64,000 nt of DNA from Octopus sinensis (Eukaryota): positions 73,036,001 to 73,100,000 of the forward strand of contig NC_043008.1 of NCBI RefSeq assembly GCF_006345805.1, in the 5' to 3' direction. Numbering within the stretch: the stretch's first letter is position 1; every line of letters starts with the position of its first letter. This document shows positions 7,489 through 61,799 of this stretch, piece after piece. Made by a program: the position numbers and the translations under genes. The notes under the pieces were generated by a model. It had not been told where the DNA came from. It worked only from the letters and a program-made list of their open reading frames with translations, and did no database searches.

Positions 7489-7813
7489 GGAGCACTCCAT
7501 CGGGTACGATGATGAGGGTCCCAGCTGATACGGCCAATGGAACAGCCTGCTCATGAAATTAACATGCAAGTGACTGAGCAATCCACAGACACACGTACCC
7601 CTAACGTAGTTCTCAGGGAGATTCAGCGTGACACAGAGTGTGACAAGGCAGGCGCTTTGAAATACAGGTACAACTCATTTTTGCCAGCTGAGTGGACTGG
7701 AGCAATGTGAAATAAATTCTCTTGTTCAAGGACACAACACGTTGCCAGGAATTGAAGTCACGACCTTACGATCTTGAGTCGAATGCCCTAACCACTAAGC
7801 CTCGTGCCTTCAC
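7489..7813 (-). mobile_element. tRNA-derived SINE family C with 12-bp TSD
   Basis: Reverse complement of 57947-58268. TSD ATCAGGAGAATA at 7477-7488 and 7814-7825. Confidence 0.85.
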
Positions 7814-7981
7814 ATCAGGAGAATAATGCAAGAATATACGATCCAAGCTGTATCAAAAGTATAATTGCTATAGCATGAAGCCTTAAATATGTGTATCGGG
7901 TCATGATAAGAGTGTCATTTTGTTGTAGGAGTATTGTACAGTGACAGAACTACACGTTTCTCTTTTCTGAATATTGTCAGG

Positions 7982-8660: not shown

Positions 8661-9422
8661 ATTGTTTTTGCTGTGCAACAGCTTACCCTCATTTTTAGCC
8701 ACTTCTCACCCTTCTGTTATTCTCTCCACCCCCATATGCATTCTCAATTTTATCATCATCCATGTCACATCACTAAACATTGAATTTTGGGATTCATTTC
8801 TGCCAAGTATCTGGAATAAATGCAAGAATTATTAACTTGTTTTGTTTGTAGTTTTTTCCTTCAAATCCAAGAATATAAAAAACACCCTACAAATGAGAGG
8901 TGTCAAATCCCATTCCTCTACAATTTAATTAACAATTCTATTTTAGTTCCAGAGAACCAATCTCCCTTAATATCATTCTCTTGTTGCCTTAATTCTTGTA
9001 CACTAAGGATTTAAAGGTTTTCAAGGAATTCTCATGTTTTCTATTCACTGATGCACACACACACACACAACTTCTGTTTATGTACACTCACAAGATCCTG
9101 TGAACAGATACATACATGTATACACACAGACATATATATACTGCCACATGCATATACACTCACACACATCTACACAAACTTACATACATACTTACACAAA
9201 GGTATGTAGACAGGCATGTAGAAAATTATGTAGACAAATAAACAGACACATACATTTACATATGTACCGCTACATAAATACACATAAGCATTGAAAGTCA
9301 CATATGCGCATACACACACAGGCACACACTTGTTCACAGATACACATATATATACATACATATATATATATAAGGAAAATAAGACAAAGTAGAAAATGCT
9401 AAAATAATTTTATCATGAAGAA

Positions 9423-9470
9423 CATTTTAGTACCGGTTTCAGCCTTTGCAACTTTTTCAACTTAGAGTAA
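9423..9470 (-). ncRNA. Minimal type I hammerhead-like motif, U3-A8 core variant
   Basis: Minus strand AG-TTGAAAA-AGTT gcaaa GGCT-GAAA-CCGG-TA-CT. Helix III is palindromic and helix I is weak. A second copy at about 12880-12922 (+) has stem II AGTC/GACT. Confidence 0.6.
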
Positions 9471-9705
9471 AGCATGAAAAACAATTAAATTGAGAAAAAA
9501 GTAAATGAAATGTTTTTTAAATATTTCCATAAGTTTTCAAATGCAAGGGACATTTTCCTTTTTTTTCTGTCTGTCTCTGTCTCTTTTTTCTATTCATGTG
9601 AGTTCTTGGTAGTAGGTAGCAGTTAGTAGTAGTCCTAATATTTGATATGAATTCTTAGTTTTGATTGTTTAAACAGCAGTAGTAGTTGGGAAAGGAGGTG
9701 GTGGT

Positions 9706-9872
9706 GAAGAAGAAGAAGAAGAAGGAGAAGAAGAAGAAGAAAAAGAAGAAGAAGAGAAGAAGAAGAAGAGAAGAAGAAGAAGAAGAAGAAGAAGAAGAAG
9801 AAGAAGAAGAAGAAGAAAAAGAAGAAGAAGAAAAAGAAGGAGGAGGAGGAGGAGGAGGAGATGAAGAAGAAA
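9706..9872. repeat. (GAA)n/(GGA)n microsatellite
   Basis: Direct reading. Confidence 0.98.
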
Positions 9873-10041
9873 AATGTGGGAGTGGTATGACAGTTGCAGG
9901 ATGTTGGTGAAATCCTCTTAAATGCGCAAGTGATCAAAAAGTGACCCGTTGTGGTTGTAGTAGTAGTGATTGGAATTGTTCTGAATAAATTCATGGGTAG
10001 TGACTGTTCTGAATATATTATCTTTAATATTTGCGTGGGTA

Positions 10042-12334
10042 TCATTCTAAGGCCCCTGTAATAGTATCATTTGTGGTGGATGCATTCAAAAGGGGTTTAT
10101 ATTTTGTGATAAAATATGACACTTTACTAATGCACTGACTACAGGTTGCATCGTCCACGAATTTATAGAGGGTAAAATTTCTGAAGTTGGGTTGTTTGTT
10201 ATTGGCACAAATGTCGATGTGTTCGCTGAATACTATTTTTTGGTATTCTTGAATTTTGATTTGGGATCTATGTAGAGCCATCCTTTGATGTAGACTGTTT
10301 TTGCTTTGGCCTATGTATTGCTCTTGACACCCAGAAAAAGTTAATACATACATTAGGTTCTCCAAAGAACATGTGAAGTTGCTGTTCACTGTAAAACGTT
10401 GACTCTGTTTGAAAGAGAACTTCTATCCCTCAATTAAGTTGATGCATATACCACAGTTAGGTCTTCCACATTTTTTTACTGATGGCTTCAGTGTTGTTGA
10501 CGAGCATTTTGGGCTTGTGTTAGGAGACTTTTCATAGATTTGGGTTATCTTTTGCTCTTTATGATGGTGTGCATTTGGAGGATTAAATTCATTGTGGTCC
10601 CTTTTTAGTATGGGAATGTTCTGAAGGATGGTGTCGAAGGTTTCATTGTTAAGAGAGTTGTGTGTAAAGATATATGGTAGAGCTTTTGGTTGTAAATCCT
10701 TCTTTAATTTCAGATGTCTGAGTTCGTGGATGTTGAGTTGTAGGGCATGTTGAAAGCATATATGAATTAGTGGTGGTGGGTAGTTCCTGATAATGAGTGT
10801 ATTTTTTAGTTCATATAGTCGTGTGTCTCTGGTGCTTGTATTAGAAACTATAGTACAAATTCTTTTTGCTAGGTTGAAAGGGATATTTATTCTAGTGTGT
10901 CTGGGGTGGCATGAGTTGAACGGTAGATAGTGCTTGTAGTCAATGGGCTTATAGTATATATCTGTTTCTATTTCATTGTTAGATTTCTTAATGAAGATGT
11001 TGAGGAATGGAAGTTGTTGATGGCTATATTCCATCGTAAATTTAATACTTACATCAAGTCCATTTATACATGCTTCAAATTCTTCAAGTCTATCATTACT
11101 CTCATGCCAAAGAATGACACAGTCATCCAGATACCTCTTCCAGTTATTTTTTATGTAGAGGAAGAATGGGTTGCCGTATTTTTTTAGTACCTTATGATAA
11201 AGACTGTTTTCTAGATAAGCCATGACTAGGTTTGCAAAGGAAGGGGCCATTCTCATATCAATCATAGTCCCCGATTTTTGTAGATAGAAGTTGTCTTTGA
11301 AGACAAAATAGTTATTCTCCAAGATGAATTTTAGCTCTTCTATTACGAATTCTTTTTTTATGTGATGTGGCCGTTTATTGGAGTAATTCTCTTGCCAGAA
11401 TTGAACTGCCTCTATTCCTAGGTTGGTGGAGGAGGGTGTGGATATTAGAATAGAGGTTGACTATATCGAAGGATACTAGAAAGGGTATTTTTGTTTATTG
11501 TTTTAGGGAGGTGATTGAGCATATTTAGGTCGTCCCTTATGTAGCTTTTGACATGCTTGAGGAATGGTTTTAAGAGGGTGTCTGAAAAGTTACTGAGGCG
11601 CTGGGCTTCGTATGCAGGACCTGCTGTTATAGGTCTTAATTTGAGATCATTAGGAGTAAGGACCTTGATTATTATGTCTGTGGCTATCCTGTATGCATTA
11701 CTTATTTTCTCACTTTTGTGTATCTTAGGGATACTCTAGAACTGATTGGATTTACTGTTGAAGTTGGTCATATAATCGTGTTCCTTGTTGGGGAGCCCTT
11801 CTCTGTATAGATTTAACATGGATTTTAGGTTTCGCATTATTTTCTGCTGACTGTAGTGTTGAACCTTTTCATAATATGCTGTGTCTTCTAATATGGATAG
11901 TACTAGAGTTATATAGAATACCGTGTCCATTAAGACAACTGCACTCCCTGTATCAGCCTCCTTGATTGTTATTGTTTATCATCTTTTAATTTGTTCAGTT
12001 CAGCCCATACTTTTTTGCTGAAGTTTTGTTTGTGATTTTGTTTGTGTATATGTTGATATGGGTAATTCGTGACCTATTCACAGAAATGATCAAAACTTTT
12101 GTTCTTACCTTTTGAAGGGGTGTAGTTACTTCTACTTTGGACTAATGATTAGTCCTTGTTGTATTTGTTGTATAGTTCCTCAGTAAGTTGTAATTTTCTA
12201 TAGAATTCCATGATGTCTTCTTTCATTTCATTGTAGTTGGGGTGTTGGATGAGGGTAAACTTGAGCCCTTTGGAGAGTATGTTGATTTGGTTTGCTGTTA
12301 GTTCTTCGTGAGTTAGGTTGATGATTTTTATCAC
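10042..12334 (-). pseudogene. PLE reverse transcriptase-GIY-YIG endonuclease polyprotein, frameshifted
   Basis: Motifs in order: LSKGLKF, EADTGSAVVLMD, RPITAG, FDIVNLYSNI, LQKSGT..MAPSFANL, WKRYLDD, LPFLNI, DIYYKP, Cys linker CGRPNCGIC/FTC, and MYVL..CQEQYIGQS..QRMALH. Confidence 0.92.
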
Positions 12335-13009
12335 TTTTGGTTCCTCCTGTCTGTCTGGTGCTATCTTGTATCTCTGTGTTTGTGTATTGGGTCTAAAAAT
12401 AATTAAGGTGAGTGGGACAGTAGCTGTTTTGTAGTTGTTCCTTGTTGTTGTGGAGTGCCCTGTTGTGATTTATAGTGTGGGTTCTTGGAAGGGTATTAAA
12501 AGGCGTGTCTCTATATCCCATGTTTAGATGTGGTGTTTCAGGGGGCTGTCATTGGTAATTATTATGTGTGGTACAGGTTTGTTGTGGTGTGGTTGTTTAG
12601 TAGGTTGTTGGAACGAAAATTTCGTTGGTAACTCCTTATAGACGGGGGTTGAAATGTCTATCTACTACTGCTGCTTAAACAATCAAAACCAAGAATTCAT
12701 ATCAAATATTAGGACTACTATTAACTGCTACCTACTACCAAGAACTCACATGAGTAGAAAAAAGAGACAGAGACAGACAGAAAAAAGGAAAACGTCTCTT
12801 GCATTTGAAACCTATGGAAATATTAAAACAAAACTTTCATTTAATTTTTCCACAATTTAATTGTTTTTCATGCATTACTCTAATTTGAAAAAGTCACAAA
12901 GACTGAAAACAGTACTAAAATGTTCTTCATGATAAAATTATTTTAGAATTTTCTACCTTGTCTTATTTTCCTTATACATATCAACTCGTGTGTTCCTTTT
13001 CAACCTTCT

Positions 13010-19703: not shown

Positions 19704-20643
19704 AAATGAAGAAACAACAAAAGCTATAAAACAAATGAAATCCAAACTAAAAACAGAACAGCAACGAACCATGATAAAACGATGGCAAGAAAAGCCCCTT
19801 CATGGTAAATACTGGACTAAACTAAACACAAAGGAAATAGACAAAGAAAAATCCCAGCAATGGTTGAGAAGCTCAGGACTCAAAGCAGAGACAGAGAGAT
19901 TTTTAATTGCAGCACAAGACCAAAGCCTCCCCACCAGAAATTACCAAAAACATGTAATGAAAAGAAATATAACAAGTAACTGCAGAATATGTGGAGATGG
20001 ACAAGAAACAATAAATCATATTATCTCTGGCTGCCCAGTCCTAGCTAAGAAGGAATATATTCACAGACATGACAAAGTTGGAACCTACATACACTGGAAG
20101 CTATGCCAACATTATGGAATAACAACAGAAAAAAGATGGTATAGGCACATACCAGAAAAGGTCACAGAAAACGAGAAAGCAACCATACTCTGGGATATGC
20201 CGATACACACAGATAGAGAAATTAAGGCCAACAGACCAGATATAGTTGTCAGAGATCATGAAGAAAAAAATGCTTTCTAATTGATGTATCAATACCGGCA
20301 GATGACAACGTGTCTCTAAAAGAAATGGAGAAACTTTCAAAACACAAAGACCTGGAAATAGAGGTAACCAGAATGTGGAATCTAAAAACAGAAACAATTC
20401 CTATCATAGTAGGTGCATTAGGCATGATAAAAAAATATTCAGACAAATACATAACAAAAACACCAGGACTTACAAACACATATAACATACAGAAAATTGC
20501 ACTACTAGGCACTGCACACATCCTACGCAGAACACTTTCCATACAATAAACATCCGAGCATCACAACAAATCACAGCACATACCTAAGGCACACAGAGCT
20601 GTGCTCGGTAGTGAAGTGAAAGCACGCTATAAAAATAAAACTA

Positions 20644-20714
<71 letters not shown>

Positions 20715-20718: not shown

Positions 20719-21878
20719 AACATGGAAGTGCTACACTGGTCTCTCCATTCAAAAACAAATCTAGTCTTATAACATCGGTGGAATGGGATAAAGGTACCTG
20801 TGGAAGAATGGAAGAAAGTGGCTTTTTAATGAAAATAATCACAAATACGAAATTTTTACAAAAACTTAACCCTAAAAAGATTGATCTATCCCCTAATGTC
20901 ACCGTCCAAGCTTGTCATGGCTCAATCACTGATAACAAACAAAATATAAACTGGATCGGCAATCACCCGGATCACCAAGGACAGTATACTCGAATGATGA
21001 ACCAGATTCCAAACGAAAAATCAGCTACTGGCTGAAATCTTCCTGAAACACATGAGCTAGAAGTACACCACAACCAGAATATTCTAACAGATGGCCATCC
21101 ATGTTTGTCATCAAATAACCCCCCAAAATAAAATGAAAAATGGTCTAGAGATTGACCAAATTAAACAATCAGTAAGGGATAAAAGGAACGAAGTTGCAGC
21201 TAAAGAATATAGTATAGAGGAAATAATTATAGACCAGCCCAGATCTGATGGAAATGCAATAATGATTGAAAGAGATAATGTAACTGATAAGCTAAGTGAA
21301 ACCAGTATGAATGAATGTGACACTCTCCCAAAGATCCACAATTTTAAACAAAACCTGAAAGTAATTGATAAAATCCACCTTGCACTTAAGGATATAATTT
21401 CAGCTAATGATGTTGATATTACAGATCTCAACCACCTGTACTATGCATCCACGAATATCTCAATGATTCTATGTGGTGAAAAGATTAGAAAATAACAACA
21501 TTCCCACAAAAAGCCTGCTTGGCAAGAGCGTATTCAGCAACAAATTCAGCTACTTAGGTCTGACATAGAATGCTTAAAAACCTTAAGTTAGATAAAACTA
21601 TCTAACCAACAAAAATCTGAAAATTAAAGGAAAATTATAACATGAAACCATACCACCAAAGAAACTATCAAGCAAAAGTACATTATTTACATTATTTACA
21701 TTATTTACAATTGACAGATATTTGCCCTCATCTTGTTTGTTGCTAGCACAACGTTTTGGTTCATATACCCTCCAGCCTTCATCAGTTGTCTTGGGGAAAT
21801 TTTGAACCTGGGTTCTCATTCCTAAGGTATTTTTGGATGTTGTGGTTATCATTATTATTATTATTATTATTATTATTT

Positions 21879-21952
21879 AGGTCATCACTGCCTGGAATCG
21901 AATTCGGATTCTTGGGGTTAGTAGCCCATGCTCTTAACCTCTACACCATGTG
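21879..21952 (-). promoter_or_regulatory. tRNA-derived Pol III internal promoter (SINE head)
   Basis: Minus strand has A box TGGTGTAGAGG, anticodon-like arm TGGG-CTACTAA-CCC and B box GAATTCGATTCC. No paired acceptor stem. Confidence 0.7.
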
Positions 21953-22029
21953 AATAATAATAACAACAACAACAACAACAACATCCAAAAATACCTTAGG
22001 AATGAGAACCCAAGTTCGAAATTTCCCCC

Positions 22030-22076
22030 AAGACACCTGATGAAGGCTGGAGGTATATAAGCCAAAACGTTGTATT
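22030..22076 (+). ncRNA. Minimal type I hammerhead (GAAA mutated to AAAA)
   Basis: GACAC-CTGATGA-aGGCT..AGCC-AAAA-CG-TT-GTATT. Mirror copy at about 21744-21792 (-). Confidence 0.7.
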
Positions 22077-24199
22077 AACAACAAACAAGATGAAGGCATA
22101 TATCCATCAAATGTAAATAATGTACATAATTTCTCATCTCTTAAATATAGAACTGTATTATCAAGCCAAAGTTATATGCTAAAGCTGCCCACATAGCAAG
22201 GTATGAAATTTGTATTAGATTCTTCAAGGACAAAAGCATGTTCAAAAATAACCCAAAAATTTTTACAGGAAGATAGGGAAAATACCAGTTACAGTAAAGT
22301 TTGTCCCATCAAAAGAAGAAGTGCAGGAATTTTGGAATAAAATTTGGGCAGAAGAAAAAACACACAACGAAAAGGCCTCTTGGATTGATAAAATATCTAC
22401 AGACGTAGATTCCTTAGAAGAGCAAAAGTGGGAGGGTATCAAGGTAGAGGATGTAAGATCTACTCTCAGGAGGTCAAGCAAATGGAAGGCTCCAGGAAAG
22501 GATAAAATTCCTAACTTCTGGCAGAATGCCTTCACAGAGAGCCATGAACTGCTAACAAAACTTTACAACAATGTTTTGCAACAACCTAGTATGGTTCCAT
22601 CTTGGTTAGTTAATGGTGTAACATTTCTACTTCCAAAAAAATTAAGAAACAAATGAACCAAAAAATGATAGACCCATAACTAGCTTAACAACAATGTATA
22701 AAATACTAACATCTGTCTTGACTGAATATACCTATAGTTTTTAATAGAAAGTAGCATATTCCCTAATGAGCAAAAAGGGTGTAAACGTGGGTCTTGTGGT
22801 TGTAAAGATCAGCTATTCATCAATAAGGTGATCTTAGAAGATTGTCACAAGTGACGCAAAAACTTGACAATAACCTGGACAGACTATAAAAACGCTTGTG
22901 ATAATCTACCACATAGCTGGATTAAGAAATGTCAGGAAATGTATAAAATATCACCTACTCTGCAAAACTTGTTTGTAAGTATGAGATCATGGAGACCCAC
23001 ACTGACTTTGAACAGTGACAATGAATCTCTTAATGCTGGAGATATAAGAATTTCATGTGGCATTTTCCAGGGTGACTGTCTATCATCACTCCTCTTTTGT
23101 CTAGCCTTAATACCTCTCTCGAAATTGGTCGATGGTGTACAATATGGCTATAAAATGTTTGATAAAAATATATATTATCTCATTTACATGGATGATTTAA
23201 AGCTCTTTGCAAAAAATAGCCAACAACTACTGGGCTTACTAACGATTGTTAAGCAATTCAGTGATGAGGGAAAGGAATAGAAGAGAATGTTAATGCAGGG
23301 TAAGGGCAATAATCAAGATAGAGCTGAATGCAAGAGACAGGATTGAAGTGATCAATACTTTAGCCATACAAGTCATGACTTACAGTTTCAATATCATAAA
23401 CTGGTCAATTACTGAAATATGTAATCTTGACAGAAAAATACGAAAATTATTGCCAATGTATAGAATGCACCAACCTAAAGCAGATATAGAACAAGTTTAC
23501 TTGGCAAGAAAAGAGGGTGGCCATGGACTTTTACAAACAGAATTAACAATGAAGATTGCCACAATTGGCCTAGACACCTACCTGAAAAACTTTGATGATG
23601 GGATGTTAAAACTTATCTTAAAGCATGAAAAGAAGAAAACAGGTAAAGGAATACCTAAGTGAATTCCAAACACAACAAATTCCAGAATTAGACGTACTGG
23701 AAACACGCACAGCAAAAGCTAAGCATATGAAAATCCGTGCTAAAATTGCTGCCTTATTCTTACTGATAAATGGCAAGAAAAACCTCTCAAAGGCAAATAC
23801 CCAAAGAGAGCTAATAGTGCCGATGTTGACAAAGCCCTTACCCATCAATGGTTAGTGTCTTCTGGCTCAAAATTAGAAACAGAAGTGCTTATCATAGCAG
23901 CCTAAGATCAATGCAGCCTACCTACAAGGGACTACCAGGCCAACATATGAAATAATTGATGCTTTTAGGACTGTGAGTATTCATATACACAAATGGTTGA
24001 AGGAAGCTGGAATGGAATGTCTTATGGAGCTTCCACAGAAAGTTTGCCTCTAAGAAACAGGAAAGATTATCAGGAGGGTTTTGAGCATTTGAAAGATTAT
24101 TGAAAGCTTGTGGATATCTAAAGTTACAGGTAGTAACTCACAACTCACATGAATTCTACCAAGAAAAAGACCAATCATGAGTCAAGTCAAATAATAATC

Positions 24200-38845: not shown

Positions 38846-40356
38846 CTTTTCATATAAAAAAACTCTACGCATTACCAGGTGAACAAATTCCTCAATCGCA
38901 TTGAAGTTGCATATGGTCTATAGATACACATGTTTGCAGGCAGAGTGACTACATATGAAATTATGACTGTTTCAGAGCAATCTTAAGATCCTCGGTTTTA
39001 GCTGAGACACTTTAAAATCCTTGAAGCAGCAAGTCACATAATGTGTTGACAGAATGCAACATGAAAACATAATATGATGCAAGAAAGAATGCACAAGAGC
39101 TGCTATTGACTTTATTTTGTTCATTTCACTTTATTTTTCTGTTATATTCCACTTTAAGAGAGAAAATGTTCTCCATTAAACTGCAATGTGAAATATATAT
39201 ATATCCATACACTTCATTTTTTATTTACTGAAAGGATTTCTCAGATATTTTTGCCAATCCTTAACTAACTTGCAGCTGATGTAGTAAGGAATGATAGAAA
39301 AGAAAGCTTTTCTTGTTTACTTTAAAAAGAAAGAAAAAGCACAACTCTACAATTTAAATGTCCTTATCCTGGGTAGAGAAATTGTTTTCACTTATGAGAA
39401 ATTTCTCAACTGTTTATGTTTCATAATTGTATTCCCAAAGAATTGGTTTCCATACACCTAGACAATCTATTTGCCAATCTCATCATCATTTTGGTTAACA
39501 CTTGAGGGAGTTTGGTAATGAAAATACAAAAGCAAAACAAAAAGAAAGAAGAAGTAACAAACTAATCTGGTGCCTGGCATCCTATTACATGAGATAATTT
39601 TCTGAGAGAAATATAGACTTATTTCATACATAGTTGTGAAGGAAAAGATTTTCACTGGAAAAAAAAATTCTTCACTATAAAAGAAAATTAACAAAACTGT
39701 ATAAAAGAAAATATTGCTTGATAGATATGAATGGAAATTCTTAAACAGAATCTGTCTTGGGTTATTTTATTTCAACCATGATTTGATAACCAAATGAGTT
39801 ACCAAAGAAATACGTACATTGTCAGAGTTACAAGAAATTATACACTTACACAATCATGAGGATTCCCATAAGCCATTAGATGTTAGAAGCACCAAAGGTG
39901 GTTTCTGTCTCTATCAAGTATATCTATTGCAAATCAACTTTGGGGAGACCAACTCCTCAACATATTATACCCACAGGGGAAGTACAAGTGAGTACTAAAG
40001 TAGACATCAATTTTACAGTACTGATATTGGTTATAGTACTTAGTCATATAGCATATTGTGCATTACTGTTTACAGCTAGATGGACCGAGCCATTTCTAAG
40101 TTAAGTATATTTGCTAGAGACAAGCTTATGATCAAAGGTTTCCTTAACCTTAACCAATTCATCTATTCTTCAGCAATAGTGTAGCTGCAATTAGTTTCCC
40201 AAAGTTCTTTAAGAAAGTAAAATATGATTTGGAGGAAATTTGGCTGTTATTTCTAGTTACATGAAGTCATCTTGGAGACAATGATGACACAGGATGTCAG
40301 TTTATTCAGTACTGTGTCAAATCAATCATTTCTAAATTTTAAGTATAACACTAATT

Positions 40357-40554
40357 CAGTTCTATATTTAAGAGACGAGGAATTATGTACAATATTTACA
40401 TTTGACGGATATTTGTCCTCATCTTGTTTGTCCACACAACGTTACAGCTGTTATACCCTCCAGCCTTCATCAGGTGTCTTGGGGAAATTTTGAACCTGGG
40501 TTCTCATTTCCAAGGTATTTTTCGATGTTGTTGTTGCTATTATTATTATTATTA

Positions 40555-40606
<52 letters not shown>

Positions 40607-40781
40607 CAGGTCACTGCCTGGAATAATAATAATAACATTGAAAACTACCTTAGGAATAAGAACCCAAGTTCAAAATTTCCCCAAGACACCTGATGAGGCT
40701 GGAGATATATCAGCCGTAACATTGTGTTGACAACAAACAAGATGAGGACAAATATCAGTAAAATGTAAATAATATAAATAA
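40357..40781. mobile_element. tRNA-headed, hammerhead-bearing inverted-repeat element, copy 2
   Basis: Same family as 21680-22158. Perfect 13-bp TSD TATAACACTAATT at 40344-40356 and 40782-40794. Only the 3' stub of the head (CAGGTCACTGCCTGGAAT) remains. Confidence 0.88.
40683..40728 (+). ncRNA. Minimal type I hammerhead (GAAA mutated to GTAA)
   Basis: GACAC-CTGATGA-GGCTG..CAGCC-GTAA-CA-TT-GTGTT. Mirror copy at about 40432-40480 (-). Confidence 0.7.
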
Positions 40782-41420
40782 TATAACACTAATTATTAGT
40801 CAAAATTATTGTAAATAATTAATTAATTTTCTCTTGTCCAGTTTAATTGTTAATTATGTAAATATGATGGATGTATGAAAAATATATGCACATATAATAA
40901 ATGAATATAAATATCTGGTGATATGATCTTCAGAAGACCTGTCTACCTCAGTGAAACTGAGTTCTGGAAGCACTGTGTGTTCCACCCATGTGTAACATTT
41001 CTTTTACATATCCTACCCCAATAACCCAAACTACACCTTCTCTTCTTCATTCACTCTGCTTATCTTTCCCTCCCCACCCTTGCAGCCAGATCCTATCCTC
41101 CCCACTGCCAACTGTATTATTGTTATTACATTAACCCTCCCTATATACCTGGCTATCACCAGTCACTGCATTTCTCCTTCCTCTTTGCATTCTTGTGAAC
41201 TCCCTACTCATACATCCTGGGAAATCTTCTGCTTTTTTATTTATATTCACATCCTTGTAACTTAAAAGAATGCCTTGACACATTATCTTCATCTCCCCAC
41301 TTTCTCTTGCTCACTCATGCTCTCCTTCCAACTGGGGTAACAATATATTTTCTCTGTCACACTGTCATAATCTAACCTCCCATCACCTGACACAAAATCA
41401 TCTCTTTTAAAAGGATCTTT

Positions 41421-57600: not shown

Positions 57601-57946
57601 TGAAATTGGGAACAGGTGAGGGAGGATGTTGTAAGTGACCACCAGCAATGCAAAAAGAGGGAAAGGAAGAGTAGGAGATGATGTCCAGCATAGAGCAGCA
57701 GAATCATGATGTCAATAAGGTTAACAGAAAGACATGGAAGATGACATGCCGGTGAGTAGATTAGAGGAGTGAGTGGGAAGAGATAGGAATGCAGGAGAGA
57801 ATGAGGAGAAGGAAAGATTTATGGTGGTGTAGGGGGAATAATCAATGAAAGAGAGGGTGGAGAGAAGAGTATTACTGGATGAAGGCAGGACAGAAACCTA
57901 GGGAATGTGTGTGTATGTGTGTGTGTGTGTGCATATATATGTACAT

Positions 57947-58268
57947 GTGAGGGCACGTGGCTTAGTGGTTAGGGCATTCGGCTCATGATCGTAAGGTTGT
58001 GAGTACGATTCCCGGCGACGCGTTGTGTCCTTGAGCAAGACACTTTATTTCACGTTGCTCCAGTCCACTCAGCTGGCAAAAATGAGTTGTACTTGTATTT
58101 CAAAGGGTCAGCCTTGTCACTCTCTGTGTCACGCTGATTATCCCCGAGAACTACGTTAAGGGTACACATGTCTGTGGAATGCTCAGCCATTTGCACGTTA
58201 ATTTCACGAGCAAGCTGTTCCGTTGATCGTATCAGCTGGGACCCTCGTCGTCGTAACCGGCGGAGTCT
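57947..58268 (+). mobile_element. tRNA-derived SINE family C, full length
   Basis: A box TGGCTTAGTGG, B box GAGTACGATTCC and CORE-like TTGTGTCCTTGAGCAAGACACTT. Matches 7489-7813. Confidence 0.87.
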
Positions 58269-59736: not shown

Positions 59737-59909
59737 TTATATATTAATTTTGCAAGATTCTTGATGTGAAATCGTGTGTTGAAACAGATATTGTTCTATT
59801 TAGGAATGATCATTTTGCTAGTTTAGCGAAAAAAAACACATGCACTATATATTTGGTGTTACTTTGCTTCAGCGCTATTTGTTTTTTACATTAATCATAA
59901 TCTCATTTT

Positions 59910-59954
59910 GGCCAGAGTTCTTTCACCACAATCTTGTGACCTCATCAGTGGTCC
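59910..59954 (-). ncRNA. Minimal type I hammerhead with intact core
   Basis: Minus strand GGACCA-CTGATGA-gGTCACA agat TGTGGT-GAAA-GAAC-TC-TGGCC. The mirror copy at 61347-61391 (+) has stem II GTCATA/TGTGAC but AAAA in place of GAAA. Confidence 0.72.
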
Positions 59955-60305
59955 TTTGCTTTCTTCTTTCTTATTTGTGTGTCTCTCCTTACTAACGATC
60001 AGCCATTTTATATTTTGTATTCCTATTGTATGTGTCTTTATTTGCACATGCGTATACCTCTATGTGCGTCTATGTTTAGTAAATGCGTGTGTGTGTGTGT
60101 CGGGAGGGGGAGTCTGTATTATCTGTATCCCCGGTTTATACATGTTCGTTTAATTTGTTTTTATTTATTTTGTTCATGTGCTTATACCTACTTATTTTTT
60201 TCTATTCTTTCTCTTTTTGTATTTAATTTTGTTAACTTAAATAGTTATTTAATTCCATTTGTTTATCTGTGTGTTGTATTATATTTTGTTCATATTGTTA
60301 TCAGT

Positions 60306-61217
60306 TTATGGGGATCTTATTCTGTCATATGTTGTGGTGTGTTGGGTGTGTGTGCTAGTGTTTCATTCCAGTTTCCTATTCATGCCAGGTTTATCTTCTA
60401 TTATGCGTGTAGCTTCTGTAATTTGTCTAAGCGTTGCATCTGTTCTATGTCTGGACAAGATTTTAACTTCTATGTTGTTGAGCAAGCCCCTGTGTTCCTG
60501 CTCGGCATGCTTGTACAGAACCAATGAGCTCTTCTCTTCCTTAAGTTCCCTTCAATGCTCATTTACATGCTCTCCTATGCTCTGTGCTGATTCCACTATG
60601 TACGTCGTTGTCTTGTTACTGCACCGTCCTTCTGTACATCTTATACTATAGACTACATTTCTGGCTTTACAATTTGTTTGTGGGCTAAATTTCCATACAG
60701 TACAGGGGATTCTACTAAAAGAGTAGGTTCTACCGATTAGGAATTTGATAGGGTTGCCAGGCATTTCAACAACCTTAATTCTTAGCCTAAGTTTGTCTAA
60801 GGCCCTTCTAAAGCAGTACGCAAGTTTGTCTCTAGGGGTGGTGTTGACAAACATGACACTCTGGTATTTGTGGCTATCAAACCTTGAGTTGGTCTTCCCT
60901 ATTTTCTTCTTAGTCCTTTCAATGGTGTCCCATGACTTGTTCCTATAGAGTGGGCAAATCCCATTCCTATCATTACGTATGATAGTTTCGAATTTCCTCA
61001 TGGCTCCTTTGTATACTCTGATCCTTTCTTTATGGCTGTAACCTGAGAACTGCATGCAGTGAACAAAATGTTGTATGTGTCTCTTTAACTCTGTAGGGTC
61101 ACACATGCAGAACACATTTCACATTATTCTGACGATGTCTGCCATCAATATATTGAATTTGGCATTTTCCGTGATAGCTGAGTTCTGGTGGATCAGGTAT
61201 TTGGAGGTCATAGGTTT
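60306..61217 (-). pseudogene. PLE thumb and GIY-YIG endonuclease remnant, one frame with three internal TGA codons
   Basis: KPMTSKYLIHQNSA..KFNIL, SGY, PLYR..W..ER, SVMFV.TTP, IKVVE, CKARNVVYSIRC..C..YIVES..EH, LYKH...EH, RQITEA and MNRKLE*N. Confidence 0.85.
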
Positions 61218-61799
61218 GGCAAACCTATGGGATAGCCATAGGGGTATATGCATGCACAAATAGAGACACATAAAATAGGAATATAAAGTATAAAATGGCT
61301 GATTGTTAGTAAGGAAAGACACACAAATAAGAAAGAAGAAAGCAAAGAACCACTGATGAGGTCATAGAAATGTGACAAAAGAACTCTGGCCGAAATACGA
61401 TTAACGTAAAAATAAATAAAACTGAAGCAAATTAACACCAAATATAGAGTGCGTGTGTTTTATTGGCTAAACTGGCAACATGACCATCCCCAAATACAAC
61501 AATATATATATATATATATGTGTGTGTGTGTATATATACATATATAGTGTGAGTGTGTGTGTATGGAGTATGAGGACATATAATTATCAGTATATTGCTC
61601 TCTTCAAACGAACTAAAATACTTTTATTTCTTTTAGATCTTACTTGATAGATAAAATGCTAACACAAGAAAAGATATGCATGTATTGTTGCCATATAGGC
61701 AGAACACAGCAATTTAAAAACTGTCAGCTTTCTAAATATTACAAAATTTTTTGTACACAAGTTTTAGACGGAATATGATATCTCTAGTGGGAATGATTA

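Follow-up and report, generated by a model that had tools for sequence, protein, structure and literature searches.

A tRNA-headed hammerhead repeat that is almost certainly the pseudo-LTR of an ORF-bearing Penelope-like element

The repeat studied here lies in a 64,000-nucleotide stretch of DNA (the window) and joins a tRNA-derived head to an arm with a predicted minimal hammerhead. Head and arm together are almost certainly the pseudo-LTR of an ORF-bearing Penelope-like element (PLE), because the unit was found after the ORF stop and also before the ORF, and because its body, hammerhead and tail form the ORF N-terminus. Copy 1 of the window is a dead copy of the front end of this abundant, protein-coding element. 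The RNA of the element probably starts at the head, likely by Pol III. A preliminary description had proposed a separate non-coding element mobilised in trans by PLE machinery. The machinery was identified correctly; the separate element was not found, its head and arm being the pseudo-LTR and ORF N-terminus of the ORF-bearing PLE.

Two insertions of the family in the window

The anatomy first given for copy 1 was real: a minus-strand head was followed by (AAT)n, a body, a minimal hammerhead and an (AATGTAAAT)n end at ~21680 (Table 1). The inverted headless arm, described with an extension of ~30 nt on one side only, was also recovered; it ran on the plus strand from ~21950, began with the last 3 nt of the head and carried its tail at 22123-22155. 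The 14-bp target site duplication (TSD) and the split LINE ORF held as well, and the host frame was restored across the junction once the insert and one TSD were removed (..TKETIKQK/LYAKAAHIARYE.., the slash marking the junction). The host LINE, by its motifs of putative R4/Dong type, carries further stops elsewhere. The head of copy 1 has an A box and a mutated B box, and its plus-strand hammerhead has AAAA in place of GAAA. Stops interrupt the frame of the window arm, and the protein match given below rests on the family arm instead.

Table 1. Features of the two insertions and of the host element in the window.
Feature	Position	Strand	Remarks
Left TSD	21666..21679	+	14 bp, 13/14 identical to right TSD
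Right TSD	22159..22172	+	pairs with 21666..21679
Tail-less arm	21680..21846	-	PLE ORF N-terminal codons, in-frame ATG at 21819, minimal hammerhead, (AATGTAAAT)n end
Predicted minimal type I hammerhead	21745..21790	-	GAAA mutated to AAAA; core near 21785-21750
(AAT)n tract	21847..21878	-	between head and ORF start
tRNA-derived head	21879..21952	-	predicted start of PLE pseudo-LTR (positions ~4-77 of family unit)
Inverted second arm	21950..22122	+	last 3 nt of head, (AAT/AAC)n, ORF start (ATG 22002), hammerhead 22032-22073
One-sided tail, ~33 nt	22123..22158	+	ORF codons ~39-49 (HNSSSLKYRT in family)
Second insertion, same family	40344..40794		13-bp TSD, inverted arms
Decayed host non-LTR retrotransposon (RT)	21088..23850	+	interrupted by copy 1

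A second, independent copy had been placed at 40357-40781. It had a perfect 13-bp TSD (40344-56 and 40782-94), but its head was reduced to the last ~18 nt (40606-40623). The tailed arm lies on the minus strand (tail 40357-40384) and the tail-less arm on the plus strand, and both hammerheads have GTAA. The GAAA motif of the hammerhead was a feature of the family (176 of 233 arms, with CTGATGA in 147 of 233) but was broken in all four family hammerheads of the window, so the family copies in the window are dead.

Other repeats were recorded nearby. The 3' end of another LINE, with a zf-RVT match, occupies 19705-20710 and ends in (AAT)n directly before the host LINE; it is of presumed R4/Dong type, with a putative restriction-like endonuclease motif. 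The (AAT)n tract of the pseudo-LTR was a frequent landing site, with LINE 3' ends and SINEs inside it (L027, L088, L035, L065 and L069). A 62-nt tandem repeat of about six copies was present at 790-1232.

Position of the unit in a Penelope-like element

Of 30 ORF-end loci, 27 had the head ~25 nt past the stop codon (24 of 27 with one four-fold duplicate counted once), and in L019, L021 and L030 it stood just after the ORF end. The arm stood behind the head in most of the ORF-end loci; in L075 the head was decayed and had been missed by BLAST. The order of the unit was ORF stop, 25 nt, head, (AAT)n, ATG, hammerhead, tail and the rest of the ORF. The tail was continuous with the ORF at 100 genomic places, and body, hammerhead and tail shared the ORF frame when read from an ATG at unit position +113. 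Translation of the arm gave MRTQ..TP(D/E)EGWRVYQPKRC..SSSLKYRTV, with 39 of 82 residues (48%) identical to the N-terminus of an independent PLE protein, P0003 (E 6e-22). Judged from these alignments, what had been taken for a non-coding SINE body is codons 1 to ~49 of the predicted PLE ORF.

Longer fetches contained nearly complete ORFs, with RT motifs and, at the C-terminus, a region resembling an endonuclease. The family ORF matched RVT_1 (E 9e-9) and had 1,659 relatives at E<=1e-20, with 38-68% identity among the 120 listed. These relatives carried RVT_1 and some of them GIY-YIG, P0064 matching PF01541 at E 1.6e-5. Pfam gave no GIY-YIG match on decayed family copies and no match on the 551-aa decayed ORF of L247, and a PDB search gave no match. 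The C-terminal part of the copies has the motif order CVYSIPC..Y.GET..R..EH, which would fit PLE endonucleases.

A partial tandem of the canonical PLE arrangement (ORF, head, hammerhead, ORF) was present in L169, and pseudo-LTR pieces flanked a full ORF on both sides in L295, L296, L297 and L313. A complete 5' pseudo-LTR with head was seen in no near-full-length copy among 20 long loci examined. The family looks inactive in this genome, because none of the 144 RT matches contained an intact full ORF (longest open frame 551 aa). Contigs from sequencing runs of four other organisms bridged the ORF end and the head, so the arrangement is common to other organisms.

Two further PLE families were found in the window. 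The first is a near full-length element at 9364-12981 with its ORF on the minus strand and inverted pseudo-LTR arms (9364-9685 and 12662-12981); close relatives elsewhere had a continuous frame of ~790 codons, and the group looks younger. The other, at 59882-61419, is a minus-strand 3' ORF fragment flanked by inverted arms; both arms have a hammerhead-like core with CTGATGA, and there is no tRNA head.

Head, hammerhead and ends of the copies

A near-majority natural head carried the TGGCGTAGTGG and GTTCGATTC boxes (A and B boxes). Against tRNA-Cys of the same genome the head had ~64-68% identity over ~75 columns, counted by hand from alignments (z 7.5-8 versus shuffles); the comparison set was Cys, Arg, Thr, Lys, Ala and Phe only, and other sources are possible. 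The acceptor strands of the head did not pair and the predicted fold was not tRNA-like. Neither the tRNA-like head nor the hammerhead of the arms was called by program: ARAGORN and Rfam reported no tRNA and no hammerhead, and Rfam miRNA matches were dismissed as hairpin or microsatellite artefacts.

Exact 20-mers of the hammerhead and the head occurred 7,558 and 4,938 times genome-wide, and their reversed controls zero times, which excludes chance. A head match was present in 24 of the 30 best arm loci, and the arm lay downstream in 25 of the 30 best head loci (five of these being one duplicated insertion). The head is therefore a regular part of the family, as first proposed. A chance SINE insertion into the AAT tract was rejected, since the head recurred in family loci and after the ORF stop. 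The head as part of a SINE with another body was likewise rejected: no alternative body recurred in the 30 best head loci or in 40 position-ordered loci. An ordinary tRNA-headed SINE does occur in the window as two 322-nt copies (7494-7815 and 57945-58266), and its head aligned to the PLE head about as well as tRNA-Cys did.

In the family majority, the predicted hammerhead had a stem I of 5 bp, a stem II of 5-6 bp with a G-C first pair and one unpaired A, a palindromic C-G and the predicted cleavage triplet GUU. Core and stems matched the minimal PLE features of Cervera and de la Pena (2014; PMC4209133): CUGAUGA, one unpaired base, G10.1-C11.1, a 5-6-bp stem II, GAAA, palindromic C-G and a 5-bp stem I, with dual motifs on opposite strands 100-700 bp apart. 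No structural difference from these hammerheads was noted. Short tandem dimers, in which 35-160 nt of ORF were rejoined to a pseudo-LTR piece, were observed in L165, L171, L174, L182, L186, L187, L189 and L192. Such dimers place two hammerheads on one strand, the geometry needed by a dimeric minimal hammerhead. The self-processing that had been attributed to the unit was unsupported, as no copy class ended at the predicted cleavage site.

In 50 of 61 inverted pairs, one arm stopped at ~+260 (~147 nt into the ORF) and its partner at +225-236 (~115 nt into the ORF). Outer ends were asymmetric, inner junctions were variable, and the flanking repeats were mostly 10-16 bp where they abutted the element ends. 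On these features a MITE or other DNA transposon, for which fixed-end TIRs and short TSDs had been named as the signs, was rejected. The anole PLE PAc primes inside its ORF at 111-118 nt in vitro, and its tail is the stretch between two start sites (PMC11167929). Its template has to include 172 nt of ORF, which extends past the RT start sites, and hammerhead cleavage was dispensable in vitro (PMC11167929). By this reading the (AATGTAAAT)n end of the tail-less arm would be the inner RT start site and the tail of the tailed arm the stretch between two such sites. Inverted partners and one-sided tails are general PLE features (PMC8557442), and this 3'-end layer (start sites, tail, inverted partners) is already known for PLEs.

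The 5' ends were sampled by following one contig along its length and taking the first 40 places with a head (41 hits, 38 without three duplicates). In total, 22 of the 38 ends fell within -7..+6 of tRNA-equivalent position 1, versus 1.6 expected from background (~14-fold), this 14-nt interval having been picked after the data were seen, so that its significance is only indicative. No ends lay between -16 and -60 in this sample, and eight copies continued into the ORF. A CpG-tolerant recount of 18 position-ordered hits with a clean A box, which mis-scores two ORF-linked copies with indels, put most ends at -7..-1. Counts of exact 20-mers dropped from 4,938 at the head to 896 at 57 nt upstream, or, after rough correction, from about 16,000 to 2,300 copies. 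Two loci started at the head and continued into the ORF (L172 at -1 and L180 at -7), and the rearranged loci L170, L171, L175, L179 and L192 resumed at -10..+3 after an ORF piece, as would be expected if the RT jumped at the RNA end. A palindrome, TGCCC-AC-GGGCA, spans -6..+5 of the head, and several loci had loop-inverted junctions (GCCC-GT-GGGC).

Proposed transcription from the head, rival readings and known systems

The 5' hotspot is what cDNAs running off the 5' end of an RNA would leave, and its simplest source would be transcription by Pol III from immediately upstream of the A box. A Pol III start at the head is plausible; the hotspot could also come from the 5-bp palindrome or from Pol II starting there. 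In the proposed mechanism the RNA would begin about 1-7 nt before the head, and the element's own RT/GIY-YIG protein would cut AT-rich DNA with a staggered break. The RT would prime inside the ORF at ~nt 115 and ~nt 147, as PAc does in vitro, and each cDNA, like strong-stop DNA, would reach the 5' end of its template and run off after 230-260 nt, unless it stopped earlier. Two cDNAs would be joined head-to-head by microhomology or by the TGCCC-AC-GGGCA palindrome, and thousands of stubs resembling SINEs would arise with no SINE master of their own. Long copies would derive from RNAs in which transcription crossed the entire ORF of one tandem unit and entered the pseudo-LTR of the next, which a TTTT-free coding strand would permit Pol III to do.

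The coding strand had no T run of four or more in 2,386 nt (majority of copies, coverage at least 15), nor did the natural copy L093. The two PLE families of the window at 9364-12981 and 59882-61419, which were the only controls, had seven conserved TTTT runs in 2,400 nt and four in 2,154 nt at equal T content (P about 0.01); the copy average was 0.39 TTTT per kb versus 2.6 and 2.0. The gap had P 0.011 under base shuffling and P 0.13-0.22 under di-/trinucleotide or synonymous-codon nulls. GGGG was likewise absent from the coding strand (0 versus 2.9 expected). Phe codons favoured TTC 13:5, whereas other two-codon families favoured T 95:81 (P 0.047). The TTTT gap is weak and rates as suggestive. 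RNA-seq reads of a related organism showed about equal strands, coverage that tracked copy number, and no piled-up starts or ends. Translation of an uncapped Pol III RNA is a difficulty for a Pol III start. That a tRNA-derived Pol III promoter was swapped in, TTTT was purged from the 2.4-kb ORF, and Pol III makes the full-length template while the same promoter yields tens of thousands of SINE-like run-off copies is a tentative proposal, and we lean against it in this full form.

The short copies might instead be masters themselves. Short copies running from the head to the tail end, or short tandems such as L192, would then be transcribed by Pol III and form a SINE that came from the pseudo-LTR and depends on the PLE to mobilise it in trans. 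Short copies do exceed ORF-linked copies ~6-7 to 1, their 5' end is defined, L192 represents a short tandem dimer, and the arms of one insertion shared 42 of 343 variants versus 3.6% for random pairs. This sharing fits a common template or gene conversion, and some diverged copies could be secondary masters. Several SINEBase features were also present: the unit is <1 kb (~260 nt), interspersed and in at least 100 copies (4,938 exact head 20-mers), and its identity to tRNA-Cys exceeds 60% over at least 60 nt. The ORF-bearing element, however, also contains every part of the short copies. In a small unbiased sample (n=28 and 10), short copies starting at the head had diverged about as far as ORF-linked ones (4.8% and 5.3%, non-CpG), and no diagnostic substitutions split the two; the columns flagged for a separate subfamily reflected more decay in ORF-linked copies or repeat number. 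The short copies hold at most ~147-155 nt of ORF versus the 172 nt needed in PAc (PMC11167929), and by analogy would be dead on arrival. We regard such a SINE as unlikely. SINEBase further describes a separate non-autonomous family with a partner LINE, whereas this unit is the end of an ORF-bearing PLE with no subfamily split; it was therefore not filed as a SINE, although length, copy number and tRNA identity agreed. The unit may work like a SINE.

About as unlikely, in our judgement, is a head that is the inert relic of an old tRNA or SINE capture in the 3' UTR, with Pol II transcription and a hotspot arising from the Pol II start or from RT arrest and fold-back at the palindrome. Promoters typically lie in PLE pLTRs (PMC6765202), the loop-inverted junctions agree with fold-back, and the TTTT gap loses significance under the stricter nulls. 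Against this, the majority sequence of the family matches at both the A and the B box and has lost the acceptor stem, which is the pattern of a promoter and not of a structure; ends cluster 5' of the palindrome even in copies without an inverted partner; and the two other PLE families retain conserved TTTT runs. A processing signal, cut by RNase P at the 5' side of the tRNA-like segment so that tandem transcripts are chopped into units, would account for 5' ends near tRNA position 1, yet the head forms no cloverleaf, was negative in ARAGORN and Rfam, has unpaired acceptor strands, and many ends reach -4 to -7. We consider it highly improbable.

The element resembles EN+ PLEs of the Penelope/Poseidon type (PAc of Anolis, PMC11167929; PMC8557442) in its predicted ORF with RT and a putative C-terminal GIY-YIG-type domain, its hammerhead-bearing pseudo-LTR overlapping the ORF start, its partial tandems and its inverted 5'-truncated partner; placement in that clade is provisional. 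As in PAc, a one-sided tail of 30-40 nt begins ~115 nt into the ORF (111-118 in PAc). Unlike EN+ PLEs, the family has a pseudo-LTR that starts with a tRNA-derived A/B-box head 25 nt past the stop, with a strong 5' hotspot there; its coding strand is TTTT-free, and its ATG lies upstream of the hammerhead core and not at stem II.

Outside PLEs, the unit shares with tRNA-derived SINEs (SINEBase, PMC3531059) short length, more than 100 copies and a tRNA-like head with A/B boxes, and with schistosome Sm-alpha the joining of a Pol III promoter to a hammerhead (per PMC6765202). It differs from both in having a PLE and not a LINE as its partner, in being partly coding and an end of the autonomous element itself, and in forming inverted pairs and not tandem satellites. 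The TRIMp3 elements Cassandra, Helenus and Ajax (Kojima 2024, PMC10886601) also have a small-RNA-derived Pol III promoter inside a retroelement terminal repeat, but are non-coding LTR elements under ~1.3 kb, whereas here the repeat belongs to a 2.4-kb ORF-bearing PLE; the same paper argues that their autonomous partners necessarily depend on Pol II. Animal non-LTR retrozymes (bioRxiv 10.64898/2026.07.22.740005) are hammerhead-bearing and related to PLE pLTRs, but consist of tandem hammerhead arrays, whereas this family is dispersed, single or inverted: no such array was seen in 30 position-ordered hammerhead loci, and occasional dimers occurred among 30 loci selected for the ORF junction. No published description of a tRNA-headed PLE pseudo-LTR was found in a search of the main text of openly available papers, and the structure is not described in the available portions of PMC13282606 and PMC6685494. 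A deposited repeat consensus may already contain this head.

A SINE label for this repeat in annotation would mislead. As a natural test set for PLE mechanism, the family offers thousands of insertions with TSDs, a defined 5' end and two fixed, presumed RT start sites. By the accepted view, Pol II transcribes autonomous non-LTR elements and Pol III transcribes SINEs (PMC10886601, PMC3531059). If true, a PLE that carries an ORF and also, in its pseudo-LTR, an A/B-box promoter would break this split. It would also show one route by which a SINE-like family can arise from its own driver, with the autonomous element and the 'SINE' in one sequence.
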